Notes: generated from the letters alone by a model not told the origin. Counted from the stretch's first letter, positions 6,866 to 59,920 are shown. The stretch: DNA of 64,000 bases from Oscillospiraceae bacterium (GCA_050943435.1 JBMNPE010000001.1:30315-94314); one strand, 5' to 3'. Numbers and translations are program-made.

Positions 6866-6872
6866 CGCACTG

Positions 6873-9087: not shown

Positions 9088-9130
9088 GCTGCATTCACCT
9101 CACATTCGACGACAGATGGCAAATTGACAT

Positions 9131-9167
9131 AAAAAACAGGGGGACCACATCATTGCGGCATTCCCCG
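9131..9167 (-). promoter_or_regulatory. Terminator-like hairpin in the pyrG 5' leader (candidate attenuator)
   Basis: The minus strand reads GGGGAAUGCCGCAAUGAUGUGGUCCCCCUGUUUUUU, about 45 nt upstream of the pyrG ATG. A TATAAT box lies on the minus strand at 9190-9185. Confidence 0.45.
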
Positions 9168-9380
9168 AAAAATAATTCGAAAAAATTATATCCGTGTACT
9201 GAATTGATTTCAATGACCAATCTAACAAGAAATTGCGGCCCGGATGAGGCGTCATGCCCTGCCCGAACAGTGTTGGCCAGATTTTACACGTCAGTTTTCA
9301 TAGGCATGGCGGCCATATGGGATATAATAGGGGCATTGAATCTAAACAGTGTAAAGCTGATCTGAAATAAAGCAGTTTAC

Positions 9381-11831: not shown

Positions 11832-12395
11832 GAACCCGCTCCTGAGAGAGGTCATTCCGAGCACATAGTAGAGGGAGGCCCCGGCGGCAGATGCCAGAGC
11901 ATAGACCCTCTTCTTGAGGATTGCAGGGACCTGGTCGCTCATGATATCCCTGAGTGCACCTCCGCCCACGCCTGTGAGGACCCCCATGAATATTGTGAGG
12001 AACGCGTTGTCCCCGTATCCCTGCTCCAGGGATGTCTGGACTCCCATCACGGAGAAGATGCCGAGGCCTATGGCATCCAGGACGTTCATAGATTCCTCGA
12101 AGATCAGATAGCTGTCGAGCGCCTTGCCGTGGTGTGTGTATTCAAAGAGGAATATGAGCAGTGCCGTGGCTGTTGCAGCGATGATGTAGCCGGGGTTTTC
12201 GAACATCTGCGGCGGCACGATTCCGAGGAGCATGTCCCTCAGAGTCCCGCCTCCCACAGCAGTCGTTACCCCGAGTACCACGACCCCGAGGAGGTCAAGA
12301 TCGCGCTCTATTGCGAGCAGCGCTCCTGATGCCGAAAACGCAACCGTTCCTATATATTCTGCCAGTATGAAAACAAGAGACCTGTCGACTTCCAT
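11739..12395 (-). CDS. TRIC-family cation channel (UPF0126/YadS-like)
   Basis: 218 aa with the duplicated glycine motifs GGGTLRDMLLG and GGGALRDIM. Seven-TM-like hydrophobic profile. Confidence 0.85.
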   Translation of the reverse strand: MEVDRSLVFILAEYIGTVAFSASGALLAIERDLDLLGVVVLGVTTAVGGGTLRDMLLGIVPPQMFENPGYIIAATATALLIFLFEYTHHGKALDSYLIFEESMNVLDAIGLGIFSVMGVQTSLEQGYGDNAFLTIFMGVLTGVGGGALRDIMSDQVPAILKKRVYALASAAGASLYYVLGMTSLRSGFSVLISVGTVILIRLLAAHYKWSLPKVKKGI

Positions 12396-12566
12396 GCCTG
12401 CCGCTCCTCTAAATTTTTGTGCAGAAAAATATTAGTTCACGGCGGTTCCGTTATCAAGAGGAAGAGAGCCGCAAGTATGGACTTTTTCAATGCCAGCGGT
12501 AAAATTATCAGTAGCTGATTATTGATATGGCGGAGAGATCCCGCCGACATGATAGGAGGACATCGA

Positions 12567-46014: not shown

Positions 46015-46914
46015 TCAGTTGTCTGTCATAAGGGTTGTGCTTGCTATCTCCTCCCCATTAGCGAAGAGATGCAAGGTGGCTTCTGTTCCCGCAACTCCGT
46101 ACCAGACCTTTGTGACATCGATGTCTATTTTTTCTGCGTTTGTAACAGTAAATCCGCTGGAAGCATCTCCGGTCACTACGCTGGTGTATCCGCTAATCTC
46201 ATCCTCGGTCAGGGTATAGGTTATCTCATTTCCACTGCTGTCTGTCTGGTCGAGACCCGTGAATGTATATGTCCAGCCGCTGTCAGCAGTAAGAACTGCG
46301 CTGGCTGCCTCTGTTCCGTCTGCCAGGAGGTGAACAGTTGCCTCACTGCCTTCATTGCCAATCCAGGTTTTTGTGACCTGAATGTCTATCTGCTTTGTAT
46401 TAGTCACGGTAAATCCGGTAGAGGCATCTCCGCTTATTTCGCTGGCATATCCATCAATCTCATCCTCGGTCAGGGTATAGGTTATCTCATTTCCGCTGCT
46501 GTCTGCCTGGTCGAGATCCGTAAAGGTGTATGTCCAGCCGCTGCCTGCAGTAAGAACTGCGCTGGCTGCCTCTGTCCCGTCTGCCAGGAGGTGAACAGTT
46601 GCTTCTGTCCCGGCGTCGCCGATCCAGACCTTCGAGACCTGAATGCTTATCTTCCTTGTGTTTGTAACGATAAACCCGCTGGAAGCATCTCCAGTGATGC
46701 TGGTTTCGTATCCTTCCAATGCATCTTCTGTAATAGTGTAGGTTATCTCGTTTCCTTCGCTGTCCGTCTTATCAAGATCCGTAAAGGTGTAGCTCCAGTC
46801 ACTGTCAGCCGTAAGGACAGCACTGCCATTCTCAGTGCCGTTGGCAAAGAGATGTACAGTTGCTTCTGCACCGGCATCGCCTATCCATACCTTCTCTACA
46901 TTGATTGATATTTT
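45871..46914 (-). repeat. Tandem 261-bp (87-codon) coding repeats, 4 copies (CnaB-type domains)
   Basis: Long near-identical DNA stretches recur with a ~261-nt period, for example CTCATCCTCGGTCAGGGTATAGGTTATCTCATTTCC at ~46197 and ~46458. Confidence 0.85.
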
Positions 46915-48561
46915 TTCCGGCTCGGGAGTTACAGAAGGAACGTTGTGCTCCTCCTTTTCCTCATCGGTAGGCGTACCGAAGTCCAGATAATGGTTGCTTC
47001 CGACGCCTCCGCCGTATGTGGCAGTGTTGTCGGTGATAACTACAGAAGCTGAGGCTATGGCGCTCTGCTTGGCTTCCTCGGAAGGCACATTGACGACTGC
47101 GCTTGCCTGCAGAAGGGAAGCTGATTCTACTGCACTAGAAGCTGTATAACGGCTGCTGCTGTTCGATGCCTCCAGAGTGAGTGCACCGCCGTCCAGATAC
47201 CACTCATTGCTTCCGCCTCCAAGCATGGTATCCGTCACTGTTACCCCGGTGTCGCCGCTTCTGGGGGATACATACAGGTCATCTCCGGCTCCGTCAGTGC
47301 CTCTTCTTGATGTCGTGTTATCAAAGAGGGCAATGCCGTCCGCCTCTGCAACGCTGAACATGTCGGCTTCGCCGTCGGGGCAGAACCAGAGGCCGCCACC
47401 CAGAATTCTGGCGGTGTTGCCCATAACCAGAGTGTTTTTAAATGAAGCTCCTCCATATGCCCTTCCACAGTCTAGGAACAAACCGCCGCCCTTGTCATCG
47501 GAAGTGTTTCCGGATATTGTGCCTGAGCTGAGTACTGCATTTGTATAGATATTGCTGAAAATGCCGCCGCCGTGAGTCTGGCCTGCTGAAGAACCGGAAC
47601 TTTCACTGCCGGCACCGGAGCGGTAGGCACAGTTGTTGAGGATGCTGCCGCCATAGAGATAAATGGAGCTTATGGAACTGCTGTCGGAAGAATAGACCGC
47701 TATTCCTCCGCCGTTTCCAACGCATGATGAATTCTCCGCACCTTCTGAGTTTTCATCATGGGACCCGGCAGTATTATCGGAAATTTCCCCTCCGTTGATT
47801 GTGATGGAAGCGCCTTCTGTTACGGCAACGGCACCTCCGAGGGCATTCGCAGTGACAGTGAGGTCGCCCTGGACAGATGCCGATGACAACACACTGTTCC
47901 CGCTGATTGTGCCGTCGTTGATGATTATCGAGGCATCTTCCCCCTCGGCACGCACAGCTCCGCCGAAGGCTGCCTCTTCCGTTGTCGTGCTGCTGTTGCC
48001 CGAGATCGATCCGCCGTTCATTGTGAACGTCCCGTCTACTATGCAGATGGCTGACGCTCCGCCATTTCCATAATCAGAGCTGGCCCCTGAACTGGTGCTG
48101 GAAAAGCCTTCTATCGAGCCGTCATTCATGACCATGTCGCCATAAACAGTAAAAACAGGTGTAGTGCGGCTGCTGCCTGTTCCCGAAATATTTACGTTTT
48201 CTAGTACGAGAACAGCTCCGTCCTCGACGACAAAACCTCCGTCTTCTGAGACCTGGACATCCGCATCCAGATTTTCCTGGTCAGATTTGACTACCAGATA
48301 CGTGCCTTCTTGGACGTCCACAATGCTGCTCAATGTATCCCCGTCGTGCATGAGATAGGTATCCAGCTGGACAAGCGATGTGCTCGTGGATGAAGTTGTT
48401 CCGGAAGCTGATTTAAAAAGAGGTAAAAATATTAGCCCGGATGCTGCAATGACTGCCGCTCCTAGAATCACAGCAATTATTCGCATCAGGTGCTTTTGAT
48501 GAGGAGACGATTTCCTTCTTTTGCAGCCTTTATTATTTTCTGCGTGATAAATAATGGTCAT
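46015..48561 (-). CDS. Large surface protein: signal/TM anchor, beta-helix (Pmp-like GGA/GGG repeats), then CnaB-type repeats. Terminated by an in-frame TGA inside repeat 4.
   Basis: 848-aa ORF. Hydrophobic N-terminus MRIIAVILGAAVIAASGLIFL. Recurrent GGAV/GGGI/GGGL beta-helix rungs. Three complete 87-aa CnaB-like repeats (KVWIGDAG...TYTFTDLD...GNEITYT...GF.VTNT). Confidence 0.85.
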   Translation of the reverse strand: MTIIYHAENNKGCKRRKSSPHQKHLMRIIAVILGAAVIAASGLIFLPLFKSASGTTSSTSTSLVQLDTYLMHDGDTLSSIVDVQEGTYLVVKSDQENLDADVQVSEDGGFVVEDGAVLVLENVNISGTGSSRTTPVFTVYGDMVMNDGSIEGFSSTSSGASSDYGNGGASAICIVDGTFTMNGGSISGNSSTTTEEAAFGGAVRAEGEDASIIINDGTISGNSVLSSASVQGDLTVTANALGGAVAVTEGASITINGGEISDNTAGSHDENSEGAENSSCVGNGGGIAVYSSDSSSISSIYLYGGSILNNCAYRSGAGSESSGSSAGQTHGGGIFSNIYTNAVLSSGTISGNTSDDKGGGLFLDCGRAYGGASFKNTLVMGNTARILGGGLWFCPDGEADMFSVAEADGIALFDNTTSRRGTDGAGDDLYVSPRSGDTGVTVTDTMLGGGSNEWYLDGGALTLEASNSSSRYTASSAVESASLLQASAVVNVPSEEAKQSAIASASVVITDNTATYGGGVGSNHYLDFGTPTDEEKEEHNVPSVTPEPEKISINVEKVWIGDAGAEATVHLFANGTENGSAVLTADSDWSYTFTDLDKTDSEGNEITYTITEDALEGYETSITGDASSGFIVTNTRKISIQVSKVWIGDAGTEATVHLLADGTEAASAVLTAGSGWTYTFTDLDQADSSGNEITYTLTEDEIDGYASEISGDASTGFTVTNTKQIDIQVTKTWIGNEGSEATVHLLADGTEAASAVLTADSGWTYTFTGLDQTDSSGNEITYTLTEDEISGYTSVVTGDASSGFTVTNAEKIDIDVTKVWYGVAGTEATLHLFANGEEIASTTLMTDN

Positions 48562-48682
48562 ACAGAGTTTCCTGTCTTCACTTAGAATTCAAAAAGTGTA
48601 TTTTCACCAAACAATCTAACATCAGTACACTGTATTATACAATAAATAAGAAATAAGCTGGAAAAGGTTTTTTGAGCATCAT

Positions 48683-48982
48683 GTGCAGATACGGCTCTTA
48701 GTATGCACAATCTGCAGACAATCTGAGACAGCGGAATGCACTTTTACCGTCTGGGAAGTGTCTTTGGAGCCCACAGCCAAAGATAAAGACAAAGAAGAGC
48801 GCATCTGCTCCAAATGTGGATATATCGAGAAATCTGAGATCTCAGCGACGGGAACAACAGGGGAAACTGACTCGGAAACACCTAAGACCGGAGATGACAA
48901 CAATGCTGTTCTCTGGGCAGTGCTGATGCTGGCTGCGGCTGGCTTGGGAATTGTAATCTTAAGAAGACGCCCGGAGCGCTGA
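48683..48982 (+). pseudogene. Orphan mini-ORF: Cys-rich segment plus a complete C-terminal cell-wall sorting signal (TPKTG, TM, RRRPER), with no signal peptide
   Basis: 99 codons with a GTG start. The frame opens only at 48650. The tail ETPKTGDDNNAVLWAVLMLAAAGLGIVILRRRPER matches the anchor of the 61903 gene. Followed by a strong terminator. Confidence 0.4.
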
Positions 48983-49036
48983 TTTGATTTGTTTTGGAGA
49001 AACTGCAGTAGTTTCACTGATGCATCGTTAAATGTA

Positions 49037-49077
49037 GCAGGCGGTCGGAGATATTCTCTCCGACCGCCTGCTTTTCC
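49037..49077. terminator. Strong intrinsic terminator bounding the 3' end of the acyl-thioester operon (and the mini-ORF)
   Basis: 15-bp perfect stem GCAGGCGGTCGGAGA/TCTCCGACCGCCTGC with a 5-nt loop, followed by TTTTCC on the plus strand. Confidence 0.85.
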
Positions 49078-49109
49078 TATGGCTTTTTGGATGGTGATGA
49101 CGTTATTGC

Positions 49110-49538
49110 TTAATCGATGATCCTCATATACGGGAAATTGTACTCGTCGCTTATCTTTGCATCGTAGAGCTGGATTTTTACAGTTCCGTTTTCCAGCCTG
49201 TCGACCAGTGCATCGCAGTCCTCCGGGGAGACGCCTTCCAGAACTCCGGCGTAGTACATGCCTTCCTTGAGTTTGGCGTATCCGGTGACTTCCGGGTCTG
49301 TTGAGTACCCGAAAATTCCGGTCATGCTCACGGAAAATGACAGAAGTTCGCCTTCCCCTGACATTTCCACCCATTCCATATCCTTATAATTTCCGCATTT
49401 GTTGCAGACAGGAAGAGGAGGAAATTCGACATTGCCGCACTTCGGGCATCTGAGCCCAAGTATCTTTCCTTCCTTGAGAGAGTCATACCATTCCTTGACG
49501 ATAGGTTCCATTCCTTTTAGTTTCTGCATCAGTTCCAC
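49110..49538 (-). CDS. DUF35 Zn-ribbon/OB-fold protein (thiolase partner)
   Basis: 142 aa. Zn ribbon RCPKCGNVEFPPLPVCNKCG followed by an OB-fold region. Starts 4 nt after the thiolase stop. Confidence 0.85.
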   Translation of the reverse strand: MELMQKLKGMEPIVKEWYDSLKEGKILGLRCPKCGNVEFPPLPVCNKCGNYKDMEWVEMSGEGELLSFSVSMTGIFGYSTDPEVTGYAKLKEGMYYAGVLEGVSPEDCDALVDRLENGTVKIQLYDAKISDEYNFPYMRIID

Positions 49539-49542
49539 CTCC

Positions 49543-50826
49543 TCACAGCGACTTCAGGACAACTGCTCCGGTGTTGAAGCCGGCTCCTCCGCCCCATACC
49601 ACGCTGATTTTTGGAATCTTCTTCATCTGCCTGGGGCCGTTTTCACCGCGCATCTGCTTTACAGCTTCATCAACTTCGATGATAAACGCAGGCGAACGAG
49701 GATGCCCGGACTGAGTCCTGCCGCCGGAAGTCGTGATCGGCTTTTTGCCGTCGAATGCCATCTCGCCGTCGCGCATGTATTTCCAGGCTTCGCCCTTCGG
49801 AATATATCCCGCTGCCTCAGAGACATCCAGCACCATGGTGGCAGGGCAGTCGTGGACACCGAGATAATCGATCTGGGAAGCAGGGTCTGTGATTCCGGCC
49901 ATCTTGTACAGGTTCGGGAAGATAACCGTGTTGGGTACTGTGGGAACCACACAGCTCTGATTGTCGCGCGAACCGATTGTATAGATGCCTGCAACCTCTA
50001 TCGGCTTTTCCACATATTTCTTCGCCATGTCAGTTGCGCACACAATGACTGCCGAAGCCCCGTCGATTATCTGTCCGAGATACCTCGCGCGGACAAGATA
50101 GCTCATGTATGGATTGAACTTGTTGCTGCGCAGGTAATCGTCTACACTGTCAAACCCGAAGTGCTTTGCCTCGTCTTCGAAGCTCATGGTTATGCGAGTT
50201 GCCTTCGGATTGGTCATGGCCTCGCGGCGCTTGCTCTTGAGATATCCGATGAAGCAGTCTTCTATATCGGATTTCTTGAGGTGATTGTCGATCATGTACC
50301 TCACAAGGACTGCCTCTGTCGGCCCTACGCCTGAATATGCCGGAGCCTGGTATGCTGAATCAGTCGATGCATAGACAGAGGCCCAGAGTGCGTCGTTGCT
50401 GAATTCGACGCGGTCCTGCGGCGGCATTCCCGGCTTCTGGACGCAGGAATTGATGTTGACGGCTCCAGAGAGTACGCAGTCATACTTTCCGGAAGCTACT
50501 GCCTGGACTGCAATGTCGAGGCCGAAAGCCATGGAGCCGCAGCCTTCATCGTGGAAAATGGTCGGGCGGTTGCGGAGTCCGATCCACTCGCCGAAGAAAG
50601 GAGCGGCGCTCTTCATGTTGGAATAATTCGGGCCTGACATGCCCACATAGTAGGCGTCTATATCCTCGGGCCCTATGTTCCCGCTGTCCATGGCTTCGAT
50701 GCTTGCCATGGCGAACAATTCCCTCTCGGTCATGTTCAGGATCTGCGGCGTATGGCGCACATCTCCCAGCGGTGTATACCCGGTGCTGATTATTGAGACG
50801 CTCCGGGCCAGCTTCAAATCTGCCAT
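49543..50826 (-). CDS. Thiolase-superfamily protein (archaeal/SCP-x-type thiolase-like)
   Basis: 427 aa from ATG 50826, preceded by GGGAGGA. Candidate nucleophile DEGCGSM, with C-terminal GVHDCPA and GHPRSPAF blocks. The longer 478-aa ORF is rejected. Confidence 0.85.
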   Translation of the reverse strand: MADLKLARSVSIISTGYTPLGDVRHTPQILNMTERELFAMASIEAMDSGNIGPEDIDAYYVGMSGPNYSNMKSAAPFFGEWIGLRNRPTIFHDEGCGSMAFGLDIAVQAVASGKYDCVLSGAVNINSCVQKPGMPPQDRVEFSNDALWASVYASTDSAYQAPAYSGVGPTEAVLVRYMIDNHLKKSDIEDCFIGYLKSKRREAMTNPKATRITMSFEDEAKHFGFDSVDDYLRSNKFNPYMSYLVRARYLGQIIDGASAVIVCATDMAKKYVEKPIEVAGIYTIGSRDNQSCVVPTVPNTVIFPNLYKMAGITDPASQIDYLGVHDCPATMVLDVSEAAGYIPKGEAWKYMRDGEMAFDGKKPITTSGGRTQSGHPRSPAFIIEVDEAVKQMRGENGPRQMKKIPKISVVWGGGAGFNTGAVVLKSL

Positions 50827-50839
50827 GATAATCCTCCCG

Positions 50840-51748
50840 TCACTCTTTCTTTGATGCAGCTTCCCTGGCATCCTCCTCTGCGTTGATCCTCTGAAGCTTG
50901 CGTGTGGCCTCATCATGCGTGACGACATCGTTGTCCTTGCTGATGCTGATAGCCAGACTTGACCACATCTCTGTTCCAAAGGTCATGCGGAGTTCCTTTG
51001 CCAGCTGTTCCTTGACAGGCTCGCGGGTGATCTGGGTTGTGACGCGCCTTGTGATCCTTGGCGCCTTTGCAATCTGTTCGCCTATTTCCTGTGCGCGCTG
51101 CCAGATTTTATCCTTAGGCAGGACCTCGTTGACCATTCCGTACTCCAGGGCTGTCTTTGCATCAATGCGCTGCCCGGTGAGCATCGCGTAATTGGCCCTC
51201 TTGTAGCCCATAGCCGTTCGGAGTCCGATTTCAATTCCGTCTCCGGGTACCCCGCCAAGAATATAATGCGGGTCCGCTATAACGGCATCCTCGGCCATCA
51301 GGGTGATATCGCATAGCAGGGCTATTTCTGAATGGAAGCAGTAGCCACCGTTGATAACACCGATGGTGGGCTGCTCCACATCGTTAACCAGGCCTTCAAT
51401 CATGTTGCAGCCGTCATAGTAGCTGTGCTCGTAATAAGACCATGCCTGTGTCTGCAGGGTCTCCTTGATGCTGGTCTGGTCGCTCGCGATAAGCCAGTTG
51501 TCGCCGGCTCCACCGATGATGAGAACCTCTGTCTCTGCATCCTGCCCGACAGTCCAGAACAGCTGGCCCAGTCCTCTGTGAAGGGGGTAGTCCCATGGGG
51601 CAGAGTCCCCGTTCTTGTGCCATTTGGCAGTAAGGACTCCGCTCTCGCTTCTCTCGAGCAGGAACAGATCCTTGAATTTTTCCTTGTACTCGTCGAATGT
51701 GGTGTACTTGATCATCAACGGGCTTTCACACTGTGGTACCTTCGGCAT
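50840..51748 (-). CDS. Crotonase-superfamily (enoyl-CoA hydratase/isomerase-like) protein
   Basis: 302 aa from ATG 51748, preceded by AAAGGAGGA. Oxyanion-hole-type blocks VLIIGGAGDNW and VINGGYCFHSEIALLCDITLMAED. An alternative ATG at 51868 overlaps the fabD stop (TGATG). Confidence 0.8.
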   Translation of the reverse strand: MPKVPQCESPLMIKYTTFDEYKEKFKDLFLLERSESGVLTAKWHKNGDSAPWDYPLHRGLGQLFWTVGQDAETEVLIIGGAGDNWLIASDQTSIKETLQTQAWSYYEHSYYDGCNMIEGLVNDVEQPTIGVINGGYCFHSEIALLCDITLMAEDAVIADPHYILGGVPGDGIEIGLRTAMGYKRANYAMLTGQRIDAKTALEYGMVNEVLPKDKIWQRAQEIGEQIAKAPRITRRVTTQITREPVKEQLAKELRMTFGTEMWSSLAISISKDNDVVTHDEATRKLQRINAEEDAREAASKKE

Positions 51749-51867
51749 AATAAATCCTCCTTTGCAAGGCTTGTGCCTTAATCGGCAAATATTTTTCCGT
51801 GTAATTTTCCACGGTTCCGCACCTATAAGATTTTTTAACTGAACTTGACTGTATGGTTTTTCTGTCA

Positions 51868-52797
51868 TCAGGACAGACTGCTAATATCATTCAGGTTCCC
51901 GATGTTGATGGTCTTCATATCTGGATTTATCCGTTTCATAAGTCCAGCCAGGACCTGCCCGGGCCCTATCTCGACAAAGGTATCAACCCCCTGAGAGATC
52001 ATGTACTGGACGGACTGCTCCCATAGAACGCTGTGATTTACCTGCTCCTCCAGCTCCGAGCGGATGTCTTGAATATCTTTAAGGGGCCCTGCCGTAGTAT
52101 TTCCGATAATCTTCACGGACGGCATCTTCAGGGAAACTGCTTCAATCTCCGGAGTGAGCTTCTCGGCTGCAGGCTTCATAAAGGGAGAATGGAATGCCCC
52201 GGAAACCTTGAGGGGAATGCCGAATTTTCCGCCATAATCCTTGACCTTGCCGCAGGCGGCTTCGACGGCATCCAGTGTGCCTGAGATGACCACCTGGCCC
52301 GGACAGTTGAAGTTGGCTGAACAGGTTCCCGTTTCCTCGCAGAGCTTCCTAATGTTTTCCTCTGGTACTGCGATGACGGCGGCCATGCCTCCCGGGTTCA
52401 GCTGTCCCGCTTCGTACATATACTGCCCGCGGTCGCGCGAGAGCCTGACAGCATCTTCAAACGACAGGCTTCCGGCAGCGGTCAGCGCTGTATACTCGCC
52501 GAGGCTGTGCCCGGCCATATATTCCGCCTCTGGCACCAGGCGCTTTCCCGTTTCTCTTTCCTTTTCACGGAGAGCCTCCAGGCACGCGATGGACATGGTC
52601 AGCAGGGCGGGCTGCGCGTTCATGGTTTTCTTGAGCTCATCCTCCGGGCCTTCAAAGCACATCTTTGAAAGGGGAAATCCGAGAATGCTGTCAGCCCGGT
52701 CAAATATATCCCTTGCCGCCGGGCTCTCCCTGTAAAGATCAAGCCCCATCCCGGCAAACTGTGCTCCCTGCCCAGGGAAAATGTATGCTGTACTCAC
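51868..52797 (-). CDS. fabD: Malonyl-CoA:ACP transacylase (FabD-type acyltransferase)
   Basis: FPGQGAQ and GHSLGEY motifs. GTG start at 52797 (VSTAYIFPGQGAQ), 10 nt after GAGGAG. This avoids overlap with the ACP gene. Confidence 0.88.
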   Translation of the reverse strand: MSTAYIFPGQGAQFAGMGLDLYRESPAARDIFDRADSILGFPLSKMCFEGPEDELKKTMNAQPALLTMSIACLEALREKERETGKRLVPEAEYMAGHSLGEYTALTAAGSLSFEDAVRLSRDRGQYMYEAGQLNPGGMAAVIAVPEENIRKLCEETGTCSANFNCPGQVVISGTLDAVEAACGKVKDYGGKFGIPLKVSGAFHSPFMKPAAEKLTPEIEAVSLKMPSVKIIGNTTAGPLKDIQDIRSELEEQVNHSVLWEQSVQYMISQGVDTFVEIGPGQVLAGLMKRINPDMKTINIGNLNDISSLS

Positions 52798-52819
52798 TTT
52801 ACATATACTCCTCGGAAGT

Positions 52820-53077
52820 TCAGGCCTTTTTATAGCTTTCAGCAAGCTTCACGACATCTCCGATCGTCGCACACTTTTTAAGCGCATCTATAGACGGAGA
52901 CTTTCCTGTCATTTCCTCAATGGTGGCTGCCATCCCGAAGTACTGCATCGATGCAGCATTCAGATCCTCCACCAGCCTCGAATCCAACGTCACCTTTCTG
53001 TCGTCCTTGAGGGAAAACAGCATCTGCACTTCATCAAGAAATTTCTCTGCAGTTTCACTCATTTTTGTTTCTGACAT
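52820..53077 (-). CDS. Acyl carrier protein (orphan, non-canonical ASM instead of DSL)
   Basis: 85 aa from ATG 53077, 10 nt after GGAGGA. VEDLNAASMQYFGMAATIEEM aligns position by position with E. coli AcpP [21 protein letters not shown], placing a Ser at the phosphopantetheine site. Confidence 0.8.
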   Translation of the reverse strand: MSETKMSETAEKFLDEVQMLFSLKDDRKVTLDSRLVEDLNAASMQYFGMAATIEEMTGKSPSIDALKKCATIGDVVKLAESYKKA

Positions 53078-53140
53078 GATCAATATTCCTCCTTCTGAAT
53101 ATGCTGTATGAATGACTGCCAGTCGTTATAAAAACGATGT

Positions 53141-54682
53141 CTACAAAGGGATGTTTCCGTGCTTCTTCCTGACCGGGTCCTCATGTTTCCCCGTTAGGGA
53201 ACGGAAAGCTTCTAGAAGCCTGCCCCGGGTTTCAGAAGGCAGGATGATGTCGTCGATATACCCTCTGGATGCCGCTATGTCGGGGTTCATGAACAGATCC
53301 TCGTATTCCCTTATCCTCTCTGAGCGGACCTGAGCAGGATTTTCAGAATTCTTTATTTCCTTGGAGAAAATTATGTCAGCAGCTCCTTCTGCCCCCATCA
53401 CCGCAATCTGTGCCCCAGGCCACGCATACACGACGTCAGCCCCGAGGTGCCGTGAACACATTCCTATGTATGCGCCTCCGTATGCTTTCCTCAGGATGAG
53501 GGTTACTTTTGGCACAACTGCCTCGGAGTAGGCGTAGAGAAGCTTGGCTCCATGGCGGATGATGCCTCCGTGCTCCTGCGATGTCCCGGGCATGTATCCG
53601 GGAACGTCTACCAGGGTGAGCAGAGCGATGCCGAATGCGTCGCAGAATCTTACGAAGCGAGCCGCCTTGTCAGAGGCATTTATATCGAGGCACCCTGCAT
53701 AGATCTTTGGCTGAGACGCGACGACTCCAACTGTTTTTCCATTCATCCGGATAAAGCCCGTCAGGATATTTCTGGCGTAGTCCTTCTGAATCTCGAAAAA
53801 TTCATGGTCGTCTGACAGCTGCTCGACGACATTGTGCATGTCGTAGCTTTTTCTGTAGTCGTCCGGCACGATGCCCTCCAGGCTGCAGCCGCCATCCAGG
53901 TCTGTCTTCTCGGCCTTGATTTCAGGGACGGGGTCTTCGCAGCTAGACGGAAGGTAGGAGAGTAGTGTGCGTATTTTGGCAAGGCACTCGTCCTCGGTCC
54001 TGCAGGTGAAGTGGGAGCATCCGCTGATTTTCTCATGCGTGTCAGCCCCTCCAAGGTCCTCGGCAGTAGTCTTTTCCCCGATCACTTCCTCCACAACCTT
54101 TGGCCCGGTGATGAACATCTGGCTTTCGCCCTGCACCATGAACACGAAATCCGTAATCGCGGGGGAATAGACTGCCCCTCCGGCGCATGGCCCCATGATG
54201 GCTGAAATCTGCGGTATTACTCCGGACGCGCGGGTGTTGTTGAAAAAGATTTTTCCGTAGCCTGCGAGGGCATCCACGCCCTCCTGTATCCTGGCTCCGC
54301 CTGAATCATTGATCGCAATGATCGGGGCATGCATGCGCATGGCTTCTTCCTGGACGCGCGCTATTTTCCGGGCATGCATCTCCCCGAGGGAGCCGCCGCC
54401 TACGGTAAAATCCTGGGCATATGCGTAGACAAGCCTTCCGTCGATCAGGCCGTGGCCGGTGATCACTCCGTCTGCGGGGTATTTTTTCGCTTCCATCCCG
54501 AAATTTGTGCAGCGGTGGGTCACAAACAGCCCCTCTTCCACGAATGTACCTGCGTCGAAGAGCTTGTCTATGCGCTCGCGTGCAGTCAGTTTCCCTCTGT
54601 CGTGCTGCTTCTTTACAGCCGAATCGCTTCCTGTGCGGAGCGTTTCCCTTCTTTTCAGCAATTCTTCCTGCTTGATGTTCAT
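53141..54682 (-). CDS. Acyl-CoA carboxyltransferase (PccB / methylmalonyl-CoA decarboxylase alpha type)
   Basis: 513 aa from ATG 54682. Both CT half-domains are present: N-terminal block AINDSGGARIQEGVDALAGYG and C-terminal block VDVPGYMPGTSQEHGGIIRHGAK. Confidence 0.9.
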   Translation of the reverse strand: MNIKQEELLKRRETLRTGSDSAVKKQHDRGKLTARERIDKLFDAGTFVEEGLFVTHRCTNFGMEAKKYPADGVITGHGLIDGRLVYAYAQDFTVGGGSLGEMHARKIARVQEEAMRMHAPIIAINDSGGARIQEGVDALAGYGKIFFNNTRASGVIPQISAIMGPCAGGAVYSPAITDFVFMVQGESQMFITGPKVVEEVIGEKTTAEDLGGADTHEKISGCSHFTCRTEDECLAKIRTLLSYLPSSCEDPVPEIKAEKTDLDGGCSLEGIVPDDYRKSYDMHNVVEQLSDDHEFFEIQKDYARNILTGFIRMNGKTVGVVASQPKIYAGCLDINASDKAARFVRFCDAFGIALLTLVDVPGYMPGTSQEHGGIIRHGAKLLYAYSEAVVPKVTLILRKAYGGAYIGMCSRHLGADVVYAWPGAQIAVMGAEGAADIIFSKEIKNSENPAQVRSERIREYEDLFMNPDIAASRGYIDDIILPSETRGRLLEAFRSLTGKHEDPVRKKHGNIPL

Positions 54683-54854
54683 TTGGCCACCTGTCTGACA
54701 ATGCCGCCGGGGAGATGGAGCCAGTTCAATTTCTTTCTCCAAGAGATGCAGACCTGTCATCTTCCCGGGCCGCTTCTGTGTTTTGCACTAAAATCTGCTT
54801 TTATTAAAATCAAATTTTGTATTAGCTGCAGTACACAAGCCGGAATCCATCTGC

Positions 54855-54873
54855 ACACTTCTTTGAAAAGTGT
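54855..54873. promoter_or_regulatory. Inverted repeat ACACTT-N7-AAGTGT in the operon's upstream region (candidate operator)
   Basis: A 6-7-6 palindrome about 175 nt upstream of the carboxyltransferase start and downstream of the tetR terminator. Confidence 0.3.
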
Positions 54874-54958
54874 TCAAATATTTTCTTCGGATATGTTCTT
54901 TGCACCGTCTGTGGGCCGGATAAGCCGTGATTTACAGAAGGTTTATTGGAGGGTGGTC

Positions 54959-54992
54959 AAAAAAACGCCGGCTGAAAATGATTCAGCCGACG
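54959..54992 (-). terminator. Intrinsic terminator after tetR
   Basis: The minus strand reads CGTCGGCTGA-ATCATTT-TCAGCCGGCG (one mismatch), followed by T7. Confidence 0.8.
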
Positions 54993-55028
54993 AATATATT
55001 TTGTTATGAGTGTCTGCAAGAAGAAATA

Positions 55029-55598
55029 TCAATTGTTCTGATTTAGAAATCCCGATTCGTCGAGGAGGACGAGAACTTTAGAAAGATAAGCCGTGACATC
55101 TGCTTCAGATATGCGGTCGCTGTTTTCTGCCCAGCAGCAGTAGATTCCCCACTGTATGCTTGCCAGCATCGCAATGGACAATTCGGACTCTACGCTGGTT
55201 TTCTCAAAAACAGTGGTGTAAAGGGCATAGTACATATTCCTCATTCTCTCGGTCAGCTTCTCGTGAAATGCAGGGTCGCCGTTAGGCCCGCTCAGGACCC
55301 TGAATTCATGAAGATGAGTACCTACATAATGGATTGTAGGGGTGAGCATCTCGGAAAAGCTCTTGTGGTTAAATGTGTAATTTCTTATCCGGCTGACCGC
55401 ATCCGCTTCATCATAGATTCCCTGGATGAAATTATCCTCAAGCTCATCGACGGCATCCTGCACAGTCTTGAAGTAGAAGTAGAAAGTGCTGCGGCTTATT
55501 CCGGCTTCTTCGGTAATCCGGCTGACCTTGATCTGGTTATATGGAGTTGTCTCCATAAGACTGATGATAGTCTTGAGGATGAGTTCGGATTTTACCAT
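55029..55598 (-). CDS. TetR/AcrR-family transcriptional regulator
   Basis: 189 aa with N-terminal HTH KVSRITEEAGISRSTFYFYFKTV. Confidence 0.88.
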   Translation of the reverse strand: MVKSELILKTIISLMETTPYNQIKVSRITEEAGISRSTFYFYFKTVQDAVDELEDNFIQGIYDEADAVSRIRNYTFNHKSFSEMLTPTIHYVGTHLHEFRVLSGPNGDPAFHEKLTERMRNMYYALYTTVFEKTSVESELSIAMLASIQWGIYCCWAENSDRISEADVTAYLSKVLVLLDESGFLNQNN

Positions 55599-55735
55599 AG
55601 CGCACCAGCATTTCCTTTATGTGATGGTTTGTCTATTTATCATAAAAATTATATCATCACATTGAGAAATTATCGCATATTGACAAGCACTGTTATCGGC
55701 AGGGCAATATCAGCACTATCAGGCAGGCGGGGAAA

Positions 55736-56122
55736 ATGATTGCAGGCATCGGCGTTGACGCTGTAAGTATTGACAATATGAAGCGCATTATCGAAAGCAG
55801 CGGCTCATTAGACAAGTCGGCTTTTGTATCGCACACTTTCACAAGGCGTGAAATCGAGGAGGCCGGCGGAAATGCGGCAGAGTACCTGGCTGCACGATTC
55901 GCCGTAAAGGAAGCCGTATTCAAAGCCCTTGCGCATCTCCTTCCCGAGAAGACCTTCGATTTGAGGCTCATAGAATCTTCTCATCATGAAGACGGCAGCC
56001 CGTATGTGGTTATCAATGAGTTCACGTCGGGACTGATGGAGAAAGCCAATGTCAGGTCCCTTGAGCTTTCTGTCACTACAGAGGACAATATGGCCATAGC
56101 TTTTGTCGTCGCTGAGGGCTGA
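55736..56122 (+). CDS. acpS: Holo-ACP synthase (4'-phosphopantetheinyl transferase, AcpS type)
   Basis: 128 aa. MIAGIGVDAVSI N-terminus and FAVKEAVFKAL block. Confidence 0.9.
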   Translation: MIAGIGVDAVSIDNMKRIIESSGSLDKSAFVSHTFTRREIEEAGGNAAEYLAARFAVKEAVFKALAHLLPEKTFDLRLIESSHHEDGSPYVVINEFTSGLMEKANVRSLELSVTTEDNMAIAFVVAEG

Positions 56123-56298
56123 AAGAAGATATTTTAGAAATGAATGGGCCCGTATTGTGAGAGGGATGATTTAATATCAACCGGTATTTTATTAAAGACA
56201 GCAGGCGTTCCATTCCGTGCGTTAAGGCTGGGAATGGAGGAGCGCGGATACTGCTCATCCATGGTGCGTGCACAGACTCTTCATTCTTTTTTGAGCTG

Positions 56299-56949
56299 AT
56301 GAAGTGCCTTTCCAAAAGCTGCACTGCGTTTGCCTGCGACCGTGCAGGATACGGCATCAGCGGCATACCTCCCAGGGAACTTTCGTCCCAGTGGGAGGAC
56401 ATAGGGCTGCTGTGCAGAGAAATTGAACCGGATATTATCCTGGCCCATTCATCAGGGTTCATTCCTGTGCTGGAAGCGACGGCACATGGGATAAAAACCG
56501 GAAAGATGCTGCTGTTTGAACCTCTTCTCCCGTCGCTGATAACGGACCCTGAGATCCTGAATGACATTAAAGTGATGAAGAGATTTGCTGACGAGGGGAA
56601 GGAAGCGCAGGCCCTGCTGTCCCTTGTCGAAATTCTAGGCCGTGACCCGGAAGGGAAGCCCATGTCAGATGAGGAAGAAGAGCATATAGATAAAAACATG
56701 CACGCATTCTTTTCCGCAGAACTCCGGGGATACCTGTCATATAATCCTCCTGCCGACAGCGTTCCGGACATGATAATAGGTTATGGCACGAAGCGGCCGG
56801 GAGCCGACAGGGCGGCTCCGATTCTCTCGCTCGCACAGCGCCTGCATGCCCCTATATGTTCCTTTCCAGGAGCCCATAACAGCCCGCACGACCAGCCGGA
56901 GGCTTTTGCAGACTGGGTTCTGGATAAGTCAGTACCTGGAAAGAAGTGA
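56299..56949 (+). CDS. Alpha/beta hydrolase. The conserved N-terminus lies upstream of the first ATG.
   Basis: AHSSG nucleophile elbow and C-terminal GAHNSPHDQPEAF. The in-frame upstream translation from 56170 (..GNGGARILLIHGACTDSSFFFEL) carries the HG oxyanion motif, but there is no ATG/GTG/TTG there. Confidence 0.7.
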   Translation: MKCLSKSCTAFACDRAGYGISGIPPRELSSQWEDIGLLCREIEPDIILAHSSGFIPVLEATAHGIKTGKMLLFEPLLPSLITDPEILNDIKVMKRFADEGKEAQALLSLVEILGRDPEGKPMSDEEEEHIDKNMHAFFSAELRGYLSYNPPADSVPDMIIGYGTKRPGADRAAPILSLAQRLHAPICSFPGAHNSPHDQPEAFADWVLDKSVPGKK

Positions 56950-57087
56950 CAGAAAAGCATGAGTCACAGTCTGTTCTGAGCATTGGTCTGGATTCTGGGT
57001 TTCCCGATTCTTGTTTTTTTCCTTCCATGTCTCACGTCATTTGCAGAGCTGAATCTCCAAAGATATATCCGATTTTGTGACAGAGTA

Positions 57088-57145
57088 TTGACTATATTCC
57101 ACTTGTAGAATATATTGGTTATAGTATTCCACAAGTGGAATATAT
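57088..57145 (+). promoter_or_regulatory. padR promoter (TTGACT-N17-TATATT) overlapped by two 18-bp palindromic operator-like repeats
   Basis: TATTCCACTTGTAGAATA (57095-57112) and TATTCCACAAGTGGAATA (57124-57141, a perfect 8-2-8 palindrome), 29 bp apart and directly upstream of padR. Confidence 0.55.
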
Positions 57146-57168
57146 TATTTCTGCCTGAGGAGAAAACA

Positions 57169-57732
57169 ATGCTGAAGCATGGAATTTTAGGGCTGTTGAA
57201 CTACGGCGATATGTGCGGATATGAAATCATGGAGGTCTTCCGGGACTCGCTTAACTATTTCTGGTCCGCACAGACGAGCCAGATCTACCGGGAGCTGGAC
57301 GGTCTGGAACAGCGAGGCTGGATTAGGAGAAGGACAGAGAAGCAGGAGGGAAAGCCCGACAGAAACGTCTGCTCCATCACGAAAGAAGGCAGGGAAGAGC
57401 TGATGCGCTGGCTTTCCAAGCCAGATACGTACGCTGAAAACCGCTTCCCCCTTCTGATGAAAGTCTTCTTCATGGGAGAACTAGAGCCTGAGGAAAGTCT
57501 GGCTTTTTTTGGGAAACTGGAAAAAGAATACACAGAAGCGCTGAATACGCTGGAAGGGACAAAAGATGCCATTGTCTACTATCAGAGGGAAGTGCCTGAC
57601 CCGGAGCGCGTCGCGTTCTGGCAGATGACGTCAGACTTCGGGAAGAGATACGCAGAGATGATGGTTGAATGGAGCAGGAGCTGCATAGATAAAATCGAAG
57701 CTGCACAGAAGAGCAAAGGCGGTGCGAAATGA
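57169..57732 (+). CDS. PadR-family transcriptional regulator
   Basis: MLKHGILGLLNYGDMCGYEIMEVF...SQIYRELDGLEQRGWI wHTH. Start at ATG 57169 after GAGGAG. The stop overlaps the next start (ATGA). Confidence 0.88.
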   Translation: MLKHGILGLLNYGDMCGYEIMEVFRDSLNYFWSAQTSQIYRELDGLEQRGWIRRRTEKQEGKPDRNVCSITKEGREELMRWLSKPDTYAENRFPLLMKVFFMGELEPEESLAFFGKLEKEYTEALNTLEGTKDAIVYYQREVPDPERVAFWQMTSDFGKRYAEMMVEWSRSCIDKIEAAQKSKGGAK

Positions 57733-59372
57733 ACATCCTGGTTATCAACGGAAGCCCAAAGGGCGATAGGAGCAACTCGCTGAAGCTGACTGACGCTTTC
57801 CTTGAAGGCGTGGAAGAGGCCCTTGGAAGCAGCACGACGGCTGTAGAGAAGCTCGATGTCTCGAAGCTCGACATCTCATCCTGCCGGGGCTGCTTCTGCT
57901 GCTGGAACAAAACGCCCGGGAAATGCGTAATCCACGATGACATGGAAAAAGTGATCGAAAAACTCCTCTGGTCGGACCTCACCATCTGGAGTTTTCCGCT
58001 TTATTATTTCGGTGTTCCAGGAAAGCTCAAAATGCTGATGGACCGGCAGCTCCCAATGTCCCTTCCATTTATGCTGAGGGACACAGAAAGCGGAGGTCAT
58101 CCTTCACGTTACGACATGAGCGGGAAAAAGACGGTGATCATCTCTACCTGCGGTTTCTACACTGCAGAGGAAAATTATGACGCTGTGCGAGCTCAGTTTG
58201 ACAGGCTCTACGGGGAAAACGGCTATACGGCTATATTCTGCGGGGAAGGCGAGCTCTTCCGTGTCCCTGAGCTCAGTGCCCGCACCGATGAGTACCTCTC
58301 ATATGTCCGGGAGGCAGGGAAGGAATTCATATCCGGCGGAATATCCCCGGAGATTTCAAAGAAGCTGTCAGAACTGCTCTACCCCAGGGAAGCCTTCGAA
58401 CGCATGGCTGACGCGAGCTGGGGCATAAGCGAGGGCAGGGGAAAGGAAGATCCATATTTTACCTATACCGAGCAGATGGCTGCGCTGTATAAACCTTCAT
58501 CGTATAAGGGAAAAGATATCGTGTTCGACATGGATTACACCGATGTCGGAAGGCGCTACCGGGTCGTCCTTGGGAAAGACAGGAGCACAGTATCCAGAGT
58601 TTCCGGCCAGGAACAGAATGGTGAATCCGCGCAGAAGCCGGGAACGGTCATACACACGCCTTTCAAGGTCTGGAAGGAAATAGCGGAAGGAAAGTACACC
58701 GGTCCGGAAGCGCTCATGAAGCACCTCTATACCGTAGAGGGGGATTTCAGCCTGATGCTGGGCTGGGACAGCTATTTCGCCTCCACTGGAAAGAACAAGA
58801 GTGTCCCTGCAAAAAAGGATCATGAAGGCAGAAAATCGATTATGGCATACATGCTCCTCGCCTGGATAACCTTCTGGGTAGCCGCGCCGATCGACAGCTT
58901 TTACGGGAGCATCATCAGCATCATAGTGTGTGCCATTCTTCCGATAATATTTTTCAGGAACAGGAGGACAGCCTATGATGTGATTTCCTGCACTGCGGTC
59001 ACAGGTTTTTCTGTGCTGCTGATTCTCGGAGCTCCTTCCCTGGTCCTGGTTCCATGTTCCTATTTCACATTCGGCCTCATGTGGTTTGCGTCCGTTTTCC
59101 TCCCGATCCCTCTGACAGCTCACTATTCCAAGAACGGATACGGAGGCGACACAGCTTTGGAAAACCCGATGTTCATCAAGACAAACCGAATCCTCACTGC
59201 CATCTGGGGAATCTTTTACCTGATAACCCCCATCTGGACATACTTCATAATGCTGACAGAGGCTGGATATCTGACAGGAGCGGTGAATTCAATCCTCCCA
59301 ATCTTCCTAGGCATCTTCACATCATGGTTCCAGAAATGGTACCCTGCAAAAATCGCGGAAGGAAGGTATTAA
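57729..59372 (+). CDS. Tri-domain fusion: flavodoxin-fold FMN reductase with Cys cluster, SCP2-like domain, and a C-terminal multi-TM domain
   Basis: 547 aa. N-terminus MNILVINGSPKGDRSNS plus CRGCFCCWNKTPGKC. Middle block GKYTGPEALMKHLYTVEGDFSLMLGW is SCP2-like. The C-terminal ~175 aa have about 5 TMs. Confidence 0.75.
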   Translation: MNILVINGSPKGDRSNSLKLTDAFLEGVEEALGSSTTAVEKLDVSKLDISSCRGCFCCWNKTPGKCVIHDDMEKVIEKLLWSDLTIWSFPLYYFGVPGKLKMLMDRQLPMSLPFMLRDTESGGHPSRYDMSGKKTVIISTCGFYTAEENYDAVRAQFDRLYGENGYTAIFCGEGELFRVPELSARTDEYLSYVREAGKEFISGGISPEISKKLSELLYPREAFERMADASWGISEGRGKEDPYFTYTEQMAALYKPSSYKGKDIVFDMDYTDVGRRYRVVLGKDRSTVSRVSGQEQNGESAQKPGTVIHTPFKVWKEIAEGKYTGPEALMKHLYTVEGDFSLMLGWDSYFASTGKNKSVPAKKDHEGRKSIMAYMLLAWITFWVAAPIDSFYGSIISIIVCAILPIIFFRNRRTAYDVISCTAVTGFSVLLILGAPSLVLVPCSYFTFGLMWFASVFLPIPLTAHYSKNGYGGDTALENPMFIKTNRILTAIWGIFYLITPIWTYFIMLTEAGYLTGAVNSILPIFLGIFTSWFQKWYPAKIAEGRY

Positions 59373-59437: not shown

Positions 59438-59794
59438 TTATTGGTCTTGCAGATCCCTTGTATCTTTTCTGGCACACAGTCCGAACGCGACATTTTCGAA
59501 GACCGTCATATGCGGCCACAGGGCAAAATCCTGGAATACAAAACCGAGGTTTCTTTTTTCAGGGGGAATATTTTTCCCCTTCTGTTTTGAAAAAACACAC
59601 TGATCGTCAATCCAGATCTCGCCGTCATCCGGTTTTTCCAGACCGGCGATCATCCTCAGCAGAGTTGTCTTGCCGCATCCTGACGGCCCAAGCAGAGTTG
59701 TAAGGCTTCCATCTTCTATCGTCAGGGTTGTAGGATGGATGACCTGTTTCTTATCAAAGCTTTTCGATATTTCTTTAAGAAAGATTTTCATCAT
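59438..59794 (-). pseudogene. Truncated ABC-transporter ATPase (N-terminal ~105 residues only)
   Basis: Walker A GPSGCGKTT and the Q-loop region (FVFQDFALWPHMTVFENV) are present. The LSGGQ signature and Walker B are absent. The frame ends 66 nt from the upstream gene's stop. Confidence 0.75.
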
Positions 59795-59920
59795 GTTCCC
59801 CTGTAAATCGCATATCGCTAATGTTAAGGACACTATGTAAATTGTTCTGCAATAAGTCCGAAAATACAGGTAAAATCTGCACTGCACGGGATTCTTCGTA
59901 GCTAAAAAATTATTGGCAAT

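Follow-up and report, generated by a model that had tools for sequence, protein, structure and literature searches.

To our knowledge, complexes between a thiolase-fold enzyme and a DUF35 protein have been known only with coenzyme A (CoA) thioesters or as Friedel-Crafts acylases, and phosphopantetheinyl acyl carrier proteins (ACPs) are regarded as biosynthetic carriers. Here we analyze a 64-kb stretch of DNA from an Oscillospiraceae metagenome-assembled genome, referred to as the window, in which a minus-strand operon (49110–54682) brings a thiolase/DUF35 pair together with an ACP. Pfam and NCBIfam profile searches gave the order carboxyltransferase, ACP, FabD, crotonase-fold protein, thiolase and DUF35 protein for its six co-directional, tightly spaced genes, which have good ribosome-binding sites; the gene identities in a preliminary description of the locus were thereby borne out. 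From the comparison of related loci we regard the exchange of an acyl group between the thiolase/DUF35 pair and its private holo-ACP as well supported. For the operon as a whole we propose, with about an even chance of being right, a stand-alone, TetR-controlled catabolic retro-Claisen pathway for a beta-di- or tri-carbonyl (polyketide-like) compound, in which the dedicated ACP would replace CoA as the capturing thiol.

In PhlACB of Pseudomonas and MucABC of Streptococcus the thiolase-fold subunit (PhlC or MucB) is bound to a DUF35 protein (PhlB or MucC), like the pair in the window, and an acyl-cysteine is formed by C–C cleavage of a non-thioester beta-tricarbonyl, an acylphloroglucinol, which resembles the reaction proposed here (PMC12960953, PMC6392133). 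PhlC is among the best structural matches of the window thiolase, with an identity of just ~22%. Both systems require a third subunit resembling HMG-CoA (3-hydroxy-3-methylglutaryl-CoA) synthase (PhlA or MucA), which is absent at the window locus: we found no HMG-CoA-synthase-like protein in the window or among the recurrent neighbor gene clusters of its relatives. Furthermore PhlC and MucB are without the HDC acid/base motif (PMC12960953), whereas the window thiolase keeps it, and the window locus adds a dedicated ACP, a 4'-phosphopantetheinyl transferase (PPTase), FabD and a carboxyltransferase. True thiolase chemistry and the combination of thiolase and DUF35 are shared with BbsAB, the benzoylsuccinyl-CoA thiolase, and with the archaeal complex of acetoacetyl-CoA thiolase (ACAT), HMG-CoA synthase and DUF35, which are top neighbors in the Foldseek and NCBIfam comparisons. 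However, both work on CoA thioesters and lack an ACP, their identity to the window thiolase is 23–26%, and the archaeal complex likewise requires the HMG-CoA-synthase-like subunit. Steroid aldolases use CoA esters as well.

Cleavage of a free beta-diketone via catalytic Cys, His and Cys has been described for CurH, the thiolase-family curcumin beta-diketone hydrolase (PMC11407993). Unlike the window thiolase, CurH is a classical thiolase-II homologue, a homodimer with neither DUF35 nor ACP, and its acyl group is released by hydrolysis and not passed to a thiol carrier. PhlC and CurH are two precedents for the cleavage of non-thioester beta-dicarbonyls by a thiolase fold via an acyl-cysteine. 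The clostridial phloroglucinol pathway (PGR, DPGC, TfD, TAL) also degrades a cyclic triketone anaerobically by a retro-Claisen route, passes through 3,5-dioxohexanoate and ends in acetyl units and ATP (PMC10470551). Identity with this pathway was rejected, since its short-chain dehydrogenase/reductase (SDR), cyclase-family hydrolase, BKACE lyase and CoA enzymes are unrelated; it has no ACP, DUF35 or crotonase-fold hydrolase. The parallel to HMG-type beta-branching cassettes drawn in the preliminary description had to be given up as well. Such cassettes need an HMG synthase and ECH1/ECH2 acting on an ACP-bound polyketide, whereas the window contains neither an HMG synthase nor a polyketide synthase and its crotonase-fold protein is of a different type (see below). 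All parts of the operon belong to known families (FabD, acyl-CoA carboxyltransferase, 6-oxocamphor hydrolase (OCH)/ABDH, SCP2-type thiolase, DUF35, ACP), and the system matches no characterised one, as had been stated before. In the full-text literature, whose coverage leaves out most subscription journals, we found neither an ACP-coupled thiolase/DUF35 system nor a thiolytic pathway for polyphenols.

The thiolase carries Cys96 (in HDEGC), His325-Asp326-Cys327 and His375 (in GHP), all of which are invariant in alignments of 29 and of 10 sequences. The window thiolase therefore keeps the full apparatus for Claisen condensation and thiolysis. Its residues correspond to the CxS, HDxF-type and GHx motifs quoted for archaeal/SCP2 thiolases (PMC12960953). 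An AlphaFold (AF2) model of the protein reached a pLDDT of 91.2 and a pTM of 0.93, and in Foldseek it was about equidistant (18–26% identity, E 1e-28 to 1e-24) from BbsB, PhlC, SCP2 thiolases, archaeal ACAT, Sal, Ltp2 and MucB. With the exception of the SCP2 thiolases, these enzymes have a DUF35 partner. Membership in the BbsB, PhlC or archaeal ACAT equivalogs was rejected, as all scores were far under the cut-offs (85.8 against 750 for the BbsB model). By sequence, nothing in solved thiolases matches residues 124–237, which make up the loop domain that in thiolases lies over the active site. For the DUF35 protein, which contains the zinc-ribbon cysteines CPKC...CNKC, the zf-ChsH2 domain scored over the cut-off and the OB domain just under it (23.2 against 27.1 bits); the BbsA model matched with E=5e-10.

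The 85-aa ORF between the carboxyltransferase and FabD genes is a real but divergent ACP, as far as can be judged from profile and sequence comparisons. Taken alone it does not match the Pfam PP-binding family at E≤0.01, a result that the preliminary description had named as one that would refute its reading; other comparisons support the ACP identity. The best NCBIfam ACP model gave E=7e-8 (under the cut-offs), and phmmer against the PDB found the ACP 2kwl (E=1.7e-5) with Ser43 placed on the serine of the DSL motif. A word-index homologue search with the ACP returned just the protein itself and one relative, and orthologues were gathered from related loci by an iterated hidden Markov model. 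Among the 32 orthologues Ser43 is the sole invariant column, aligning with the DSL serine of 2kwl and 2lol. The family profile built on these 32 sequences matched solved ACPs with E=3.7e-16, and 27 of the 32 orthologues individually match PF00550. The Asp that precedes the DSL serine is absent from the window ACP. Divergent to the operon lies an AcpS-type PPTase that passes TIGR00556 (62 against 45.35 bits) and stays below the AcpS equivalog cut-offs; both it and the ACP score well under the housekeeping equivalog cut-offs of NCBIfam. In many relatives a PPTase is likewise located near the thiolase-DUF35-ACP module.

For the family survey one genome per GTDB species was scanned with a pattern built on 10 close thiolase sequences, and thiolase relatives were found encoded at 427 places in these species-representative genomes. 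The surveyed loci comprise the best 80 of the 427 places and the contigs encoding metagenomic homologues; all their open reading frames (ORFs) were scanned with the window proteins and the iterated ACP profile. The best 80 of the 427 places belong to Lachnospiraceae, Oscillospiraceae, Blautia, Collinsella, Faecalibacterium, Erysipelotrichaceae, Syntrophomonas and Actinomycetes. An ACP-like gene is located within 3 kb of 84 of the 96 thiolase genes (91 loci), the misses being mostly at contig ends. DUF35 adjoins the thiolase in 89 of 93 loci, and an ACP is present in 85 of the 93 in addition to two DUF35::ACP fusions. Since all matches to the ACP profile but one adjoin a thiolase, chance cannot explain the association. 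In locus L093 a 240-aa protein encoded directly after the thiolase (11288–12010) combines zf-ChsH2, OB and PP-binding domains, the last scoring 29.8 bits against a gathering score of 20.8 in Pfam. The fusion backs the proposed partnership of ACP and thiolase/DUF35, and the view put forward in the preliminary description, that of an ACP-centred accessory locus for acyl thioesters with a thiolase/DUF35 pair at its core, is supported. Its designation as "orphan" is misleading given the 89 and 85 of 93 loci named above and the recurrence of the thiolase-DUF35-ACP triad across hundreds of genomes. A second DUF35::ACP ORF among the loci was flagged by the ACP-profile census.

The crotonase-fold gene encodes, by sequence and model, a predicted beta-diketone hydrolase homologous to the OCH/ABDH type. 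In phmmer searches of the PDB, ABDH (2j5g, E=1e-37) and OCH (1o8u, E=3e-36) came first and enoyl-CoA hydratases followed from ~1e-21. An AlphaFold (AF2) model based on 22 homologues had a pLDDT of 92.9, and its top 12 Foldseek matches were all OCH/ABDH (TM 0.90–0.92, rmsd ~2.1 Å, ~30% identity), while hydratases and isomerases ranked lower with 15–20% identity. These matches in sequence and structure rule out an enoyl-CoA hydratase as well as ECH1/ECH2. H139, E141, H161 and D170 are invariant in the 22 homologues, which come from several phyla; H139 (FHSE), H161 (DPH) and D170 (PGDG) align with LHSE, MPH and PGDG of ABDH. We take H139, H161 and D170 to be His122, His145 and Asp154 of OCH; the title of PDB entry 1szo mentions His122. 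The best-matching enzymes, 6-oxocamphor hydrolase from Rhodococcus and ABDH/Alr4455 from Anabaena, thus share the catalytic His, His and Asp. They are stand-alone, CoA-independent enzymes that act on bicyclic diketones, whereas the window gene is translationally close to those for thiolase, DUF35 and ACP and its product has ~45 extra C-terminal residues.

FabD is a malonyl-CoA:ACP transacylase (MCAT) according to both profile and structure databases: it scored 322.8 bits against TIGR00128 (cut-off 260.9), its best PDB matches are all MCATs (E ~1e-63), and the PGQG, GHSLGEY, Arg and FHS motifs are aligned with the MCAT 3qat. The carboxyltransferase is of the PccB/MmdA type, full-length and two-domain, with PF01039 covered over positions 1–493 of 493. 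Its closest solved relative is PccB 1vrg (E=4e-192, 643 bits); against the mmdA model TIGR01117 it reached 783 bits, which is under the cut-off of 998.8. The start at ATG 54682 was placed by the profile alignment, which begins at about residue 30 of the ORF. An MmdA-type carboxyltransferase is also found in the sodium-pumping decarboxylases (Mmd and Malonomonas Mad), and it is the only part of these that the window has. Mad of Malonomonas rubra likewise employs an ACP together with a malonyl thioester. For malonate decarboxylase, MadA/MdcA and a prosthetic group of another kind are required, while the window ACP is of the phosphopantetheine type served by AcpS.

The accessory gene content of the surveyed loci tracks the phylogeny of the thiolase. 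Among the thiolases with at least 45% identity to that of the window (n=9), the diketone hydrolase is present in eight loci and FabD in six, and in the clade of the window, at 47% identity or more, these two are often joined by the carboxyltransferase; thiolases below 45% identity have PTA, kinase and PPTase as accessories. A typical distant locus reads regulator / thiolase-DUF35-ACP-(SDR)-PTA_PTB-(kinase)-PPTase-MFS, where MFS denotes a major facilitator superfamily transporter. These distant PTA_PTB-type clades are far commoner than the clade of the window. Over the 93 loci, PTA_PTB occurs in 56, an acetate/butyrate-kinase homologue in 44, TetR in 39 and an Sfp- or AcpS-type PPTase in at least 30; transporters (CitMHS, MFS) and GntR/TetR regulators are common in relatives, and the TetR genes beside the module contain TetR_C_8 in L002, L004, L090, L091 and L094. 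The family members encountered here carry just "thiolase", "enoyl-CoA hydratase" or "hypothetical" as annotation.

The gene set of the window is conserved in L005, L092, L091, L006, L090 and L002, as synteny with relatives had been called for earlier. In L005 (Erysipelotrichaceae) and L092 it recurs with shuffled order: in L005 one group (carboxyltransferase, FabD, AcpS, hydrolase, TetR) diverges from a second (ACP, thiolase, DUF35, diketone hydrolase), and L092 carries diketone hydrolase, thiolase, DUF35, ACP, a CitMHS carboxylate transporter, FabD and carboxyltransferase. The L092 cluster (49–1724; 5558–12529), the closest relative with the full set, adjoins relaxase, NikA/MobC and AAA_25 genes, and this context suggests that it travels on a conjugative or mobilisable element. 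In L091 the carboxyltransferase is the first gene of an operon that also contains a 42-aa ORF, OAD_beta, a biotinyl carrier (Biotin_lipoyl) and biotin ligase (BPL), by sequence the composition of a sodium-pumping decarboxylase; next to it there is another thiolase-DUF35 module, which comes with PTA and kinase. L006 contains the 42-aa ORF and OAD_beta together with a CoA-transferase, and in L094 the diketone hydrolase occurs together with PTA and kinase.

Several relatives carry further genes next to the module. In L093 (200–1900; 16117–17265) UbiD_N, UbiD/flavoprotein and LpdD-chaperone genes, of the UbiD/UbiX/LpdD aromatic-acid decarboxylase type, and an HMGL-like::LpdD fusion adjoin two thiolase-DUF35-ACP modules, which hints at an upstream step of aromatic-acid decarboxylation. 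A 659-aa enoate reductase gene (old yellow enzyme (OYE) and FAD/NAD domains) is found within 7 kb of the module in L037 (5187–7166) and 11 other Lachnospiraceae loci. In the same 12 loci, genes for an FGGY kinase, a class II aldolase and a 2-hydroxyacid dehydrogenase also recur. Paralogues resembling CrtC-lipocalin/Diels-Alderase-N (five in L091) and membrane Caroten_synth proteins (PF04240) accompany window-type clusters; their sites are L091 580–8217 and 18272–19378, L093 7860–9011, L094 1706–2830, L002 7901–9103 and L090 12120–13028, and none lies in the window.

The reaction sequence we propose begins with AcpS, which in view of its adjacency would convert the divergent ACP to the holo form. 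The hydrolase assigned by homology to the OCH/ABDH family would open or trim the beta-diketone by retro-Claisen hydrolysis. Cys96 of the thiolase, held by DUF35, would then attack the remaining beta-dicarbonyl to give an acyl-cysteine, with Cys327 of the HDC motif protonating the leaving enolate, and the acyl group would pass to the holo-ACP. In the clade of the window this acyl group would be malonyl, a dicarboxylic unit; FabD working in reverse would move it to CoA and regenerate holo-ACP. The MmdA/PccB-type carboxyltransferase would take the carboxyl group from malonyl-CoA and place it on a biotin carrier whose gene lies elsewhere, leaving acetyl-CoA, and an OAD_beta pump would add a sodium gradient. 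In the distant clades the acyl-ACP would be turned into ATP via PTA_PTB phosphotransacylase and an acetate/butyrate-type kinase; the step from acyl-ACP to acyl-phosphate would parallel PlsX.

The preliminary description had proposed a pathway that makes or degrades a branched or dicarboxylic unit. Its dicarboxylic alternative is retained, with malonyl as the proposed load of the ACP, and on the choice it left open the comparative evidence leans to degradation. Degradation is favored because subunits of sodium-pumping decarboxylases, phosphotransacylase and kinase, transporters and TetR/GntR regulators occur in relatives, and because the window contains neither reductive or tailoring enzymes nor a biotin carboxylase. 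Moreover, a Cys/His/Cys thiolase condenses without decarboxylation, so that synthesis would have little use for a malonyl extender, while malonyl-ACP would arise naturally when a 3-oxo-dicarboxylic or 3,5-dioxo acid undergoes thiolysis.

A number of points weigh against catabolism. According to Pfam annotation the 64-kb window has no transporter for the pathway, no biotin carrier and no OAD_beta pump, hence the carboxyltransferase cannot decarboxylate with the genes seen here, and OAD_beta is linked to the cluster in just two of ~9 close relatives. FabD usually works in the direction from CoA to ACP, and a private ACP that comes with a PPTase of its own usually marks biosynthesis. A thiolase is not known to us to pass an acyl group to holo-ACP, nor a PTA_PTB enzyme to move one from acyl-ACP onto phosphate. 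The diketone-hydrolase family is also found alone in other phyla, and in Ca. Binatus (L095) a homologue stands alone, its surroundings being free of thioester genes, which would fit CoA-independent diketone hydrolysis. Finally, in the actinobacterial-type locus L003 (2793–11284) the diketone hydrolase lies directly upstream of a 54%-identical thiolase without an ACP. From its gene content this locus may be a CoA-dependent counterpart of the window pathway. It further contains two CoA_transf_3 genes, a second DUF35-thiolase pair, acyl-CoA dehydrogenases, Amidohydro_2 and an FAA-hydrolase-family gene.

Several of these points would suit a miniature biosynthetic polyketide-like pathway, in which the carboxyltransferase makes malonyl-CoA, FabD loads it onto the ACP and the thiolase/DUF35 pair condenses. 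The OCH-like protein would then be a Claisen/Dieckmann cyclase or releasing hydrolase, the alpha/beta hydrolase a thioesterase and the product a small beta-diketone or triketide. Acyltransferase, ACP, PPTase, thiolase-fold enzyme and hydrolase fit such a synthesis, the bona fide MCAT would run in its usual direction, DUF35-thiolase complexes do act in synthesis (PhlACB, MucABC, archaeal ACAT/HMG-CoA synthase, archaeal fatty-acid synthesis), and the CrtC-lipocalin/Diels-Alderase-like proteins of relatives point the same way. Yet a Cys/His/Cys thiolase needs no malonyl units, and there is no biotin carboxylase to drive carboxylation, the linked biotin genes being of the sodium-decarboxylase type with OAD_beta. 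Reductase, dehydratase and tailoring genes are likewise absent, and relatives bring PTA and kinase, uptake-type transporters and GntR/TetR regulators. We rate such a biosynthetic pathway as rather unlikely. Another reading makes the operon a split or alternative initiation module of housekeeping fatty-acid synthesis, with the thiolase in place of FabH. It has the grouping of FabD, ACP, AcpS and carboxyltransferase in its favor and is in our view very improbable: ACP and AcpS score well below the housekeeping cut-offs, the core of most relatives has PTA and kinase and no FabD, one relative appears to lie on a mobile element, and a beta-diketone hydrolase has no role in fatty-acid synthesis. That the operon is not a type II fatty-acid synthase, as noted before, is also clear from the Pfam annotation of the 64 kb, in which ketosynthase (FabH/FabF), ketoreductase (FabG), dehydratase (FabZ), enoyl reductase, biotin carboxylase and biotin carboxyl carrier protein are all absent. 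Phosphotransacetylase and kinase genes were not found in the window either.

A further reading is a malonate-decarboxylase-like cycle on the ACP after the manner of Malonomonas Mad. FabD would just prime the ACP, the carboxyltransferase would act on malonyl-ACP to give acetyl-ACP and carboxybiotin, and the thiolase/DUF35 pair would regenerate malonyl-ACP (or another acyl-ACP) from the substrate, replacing MadA/MdcA. Carboxyltransferase, ACP, malonyl transacylase, OAD_beta and biotin carrier of L091 together make up the parts list of Mad, FabD reached 199 bits on the MdcH model, and the carboxyltransferase gave weak matches to malonate decarboxylase beta/gamma models. The 199 bits fall short of the mdcH cut-off of 297.9, however, while the fabD cut-off is passed, and the carboxyltransferase with its 643 bits to PccB 1vrg is a full-length acyl-CoA type. 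In addition the window has no MadA/MdcA-type transferase and no genes for a phosphoribosyl-dephospho-CoA prosthetic group, AcpS being in their place. Such a cycle is improbable in our judgment, less so than a role in fatty-acid synthesis.

Returning to the catabolic retro-Claisen pathway, it seems possible to us, with somewhat less than even confidence, that the family represents an unrecognised class of catabolism in gut and other anaerobic Firmicutes and in Coriobacteriia. Free beta-di- or tri-ketones, e.g. derived from polyphenols or polyketides, would be cleaved by thiolase/DUF35 and the energy kept by loading the acyl group onto a private ACP, with acyl phosphate/ATP as the output in the common case and, in the clade of the window, malonyl passed via FabD to a biotin-dependent sodium-pumping decarboxylase. 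A hint at plant polyketides or polyphenols comes from the UbiD/LpdD, CrtC-like, Caroten_synth hydratase-like and OYE enoate reductase genes of relatives and from the homology to PhlC. Naming plant polyketides or polyphenols such as phloroglucinol derivatives as the substrate is speculation, and so are the individual candidates triacetate, phloroglucinol, acylphloroglucinols and prenylated polyketides. A conserved, PPTase-equipped ACP tied to thiolase/DUF35 would be a new use of an ACP and, if the catabolic reading is true, a new route of energy conservation from C–C bond cleavage. Carriers among the best 80 of the 427 places include common human-gut groups, namely Collinsella, Blautia, Faecalibacterium and Lachnospiraceae. 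A so far unassigned step in the breakdown of plant polyketides or polyphenols in the gut may therefore be due to this family.

The features of the operon and its surroundings are compiled in Table 1. The gaps between the six genes, calculated from coordinates and sequence, are 63, 22, 119, 13 and 4 nt as described before, except that the last gap, between thiolase and DUF35, becomes 13 nt (instead of 4) with the DUF35 start at ATG 49529. Compared with 49538 this start has a better-spaced AGGAGG, and it agrees with the 139-aa gene call in locus L001.

Table 1. Genes and signals of the thiolase/DUF35/ACP operon and its flanks in the window
Feature	Position	Strand	Remarks
Acyl-CoA carboxyltransferase (PccB/MmdA/12S type)	53141-54682	-	First operon gene; PF01039 E=2e-191
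Divergent acyl carrier protein	52820-53077	-	85 aa; Ser43 in NAASMQ instead of DSL
FabD-type malonyl-CoA:ACP transacylase	51868-52797	-	GTG start
Crotonase-fold beta-diketone hydrolase homologue (6-oxocamphor hydrolase/ABDH type)	50840-51748	-	PF00378
SCP2/archaeal-type thiolase	49543-50826	-	Thiolase_C_1 E=3e-23
DUF35 protein, four-Cys zinc ribbon and OB fold	49110-49529	-	zf-ChsH2 E=3e-9, OB_ChsH2_C E=7e-5
TetR-family regulator	55029-55598	-	TetR_N and TetR_C_8 (Pfam)
AcpS-type 4'-phosphopantetheinyl transferase	55736-56122	+	PF01648 E=1e-12
Alpha/beta hydrolase	56176-56949	+	Abhydrolase_6 (Pfam); start upstream of first ATG 56299
Hairpin, 16-bp GC-rich stem	49036-49072		Between operon end and convergent small ORF; strongest terminator-like site in scan
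Intrinsic terminator of TetR gene	54966-54992	-	11-bp stem, 7 GC pairs, T7 tail
Imperfect inverted repeat	54849-54879		In 280-nt leader upstream of carboxyltransferase; 12-nt arms, 83% complementary, 7 nt apart

The two hairpins in Table 1 are the two strongest terminator-like sites of the region in the terminator scan. In the preliminary description strong terminators were taken to bound the operon on both sides. This applies to the upstream one, which ends the TetR gene on the minus strand and insulates the operon; the hairpin beyond the DUF35 gene has its T-tract confined to the plus strand and is therefore weaker as a terminator for the minus-strand operon. Profile searches confirmed the flanking genes, i.e. 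the separately terminated TetR, the divergent AcpS-type PPTase and the alpha/beta hydrolase. The inverted repeat in the leader is possibly an operator. When a shared TetR operator was sought in the two intergenic regions, just two imperfect palindromes appeared, which are unrelated to each other. An Rfam scan of 48500–57800, including the carboxyltransferase leader, gave no riboswitch or other RNA family.

For the alpha/beta hydrolase the alignment with the L005 orthologue (34% identity) extends through the oxyanion motif LLIHGA upstream of ATG 56299. In this upstream part of the frame (56173–56299) there is no ATG, GTG or TTG start. Translation may begin at a rare ATC (56176) or ATT (56191) after a GAGGG site, or the assembly may contain an error.

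For the remaining ~40 genes of the window Pfam annotation gave peptide transporters, CTP synthase, Cna_B surface proteins and the like. Two large surface proteins with Cna_B repeats (46015–48561 and 61903–63261) are unrelated to the operon, and so is a 99-aa ORF (48683–48982) that combines a sorting-like motif (PKTGD) with a hydrophobic tail and an RRR anchor. Just past the hydrolase gene, 57115–59372 encodes a PadR regulator followed by a 547-aa protein, which combines an N-terminal flavodoxin-like FMN reductase domain with a long and seemingly membrane-embedded C-terminal part. The subsequent 149-aa ORF (59438–59887) covers just the first 81 of the 137 positions of the ABC_tran profile and is perhaps what truncation or a frameshift has left of an ABC ATPase gene.

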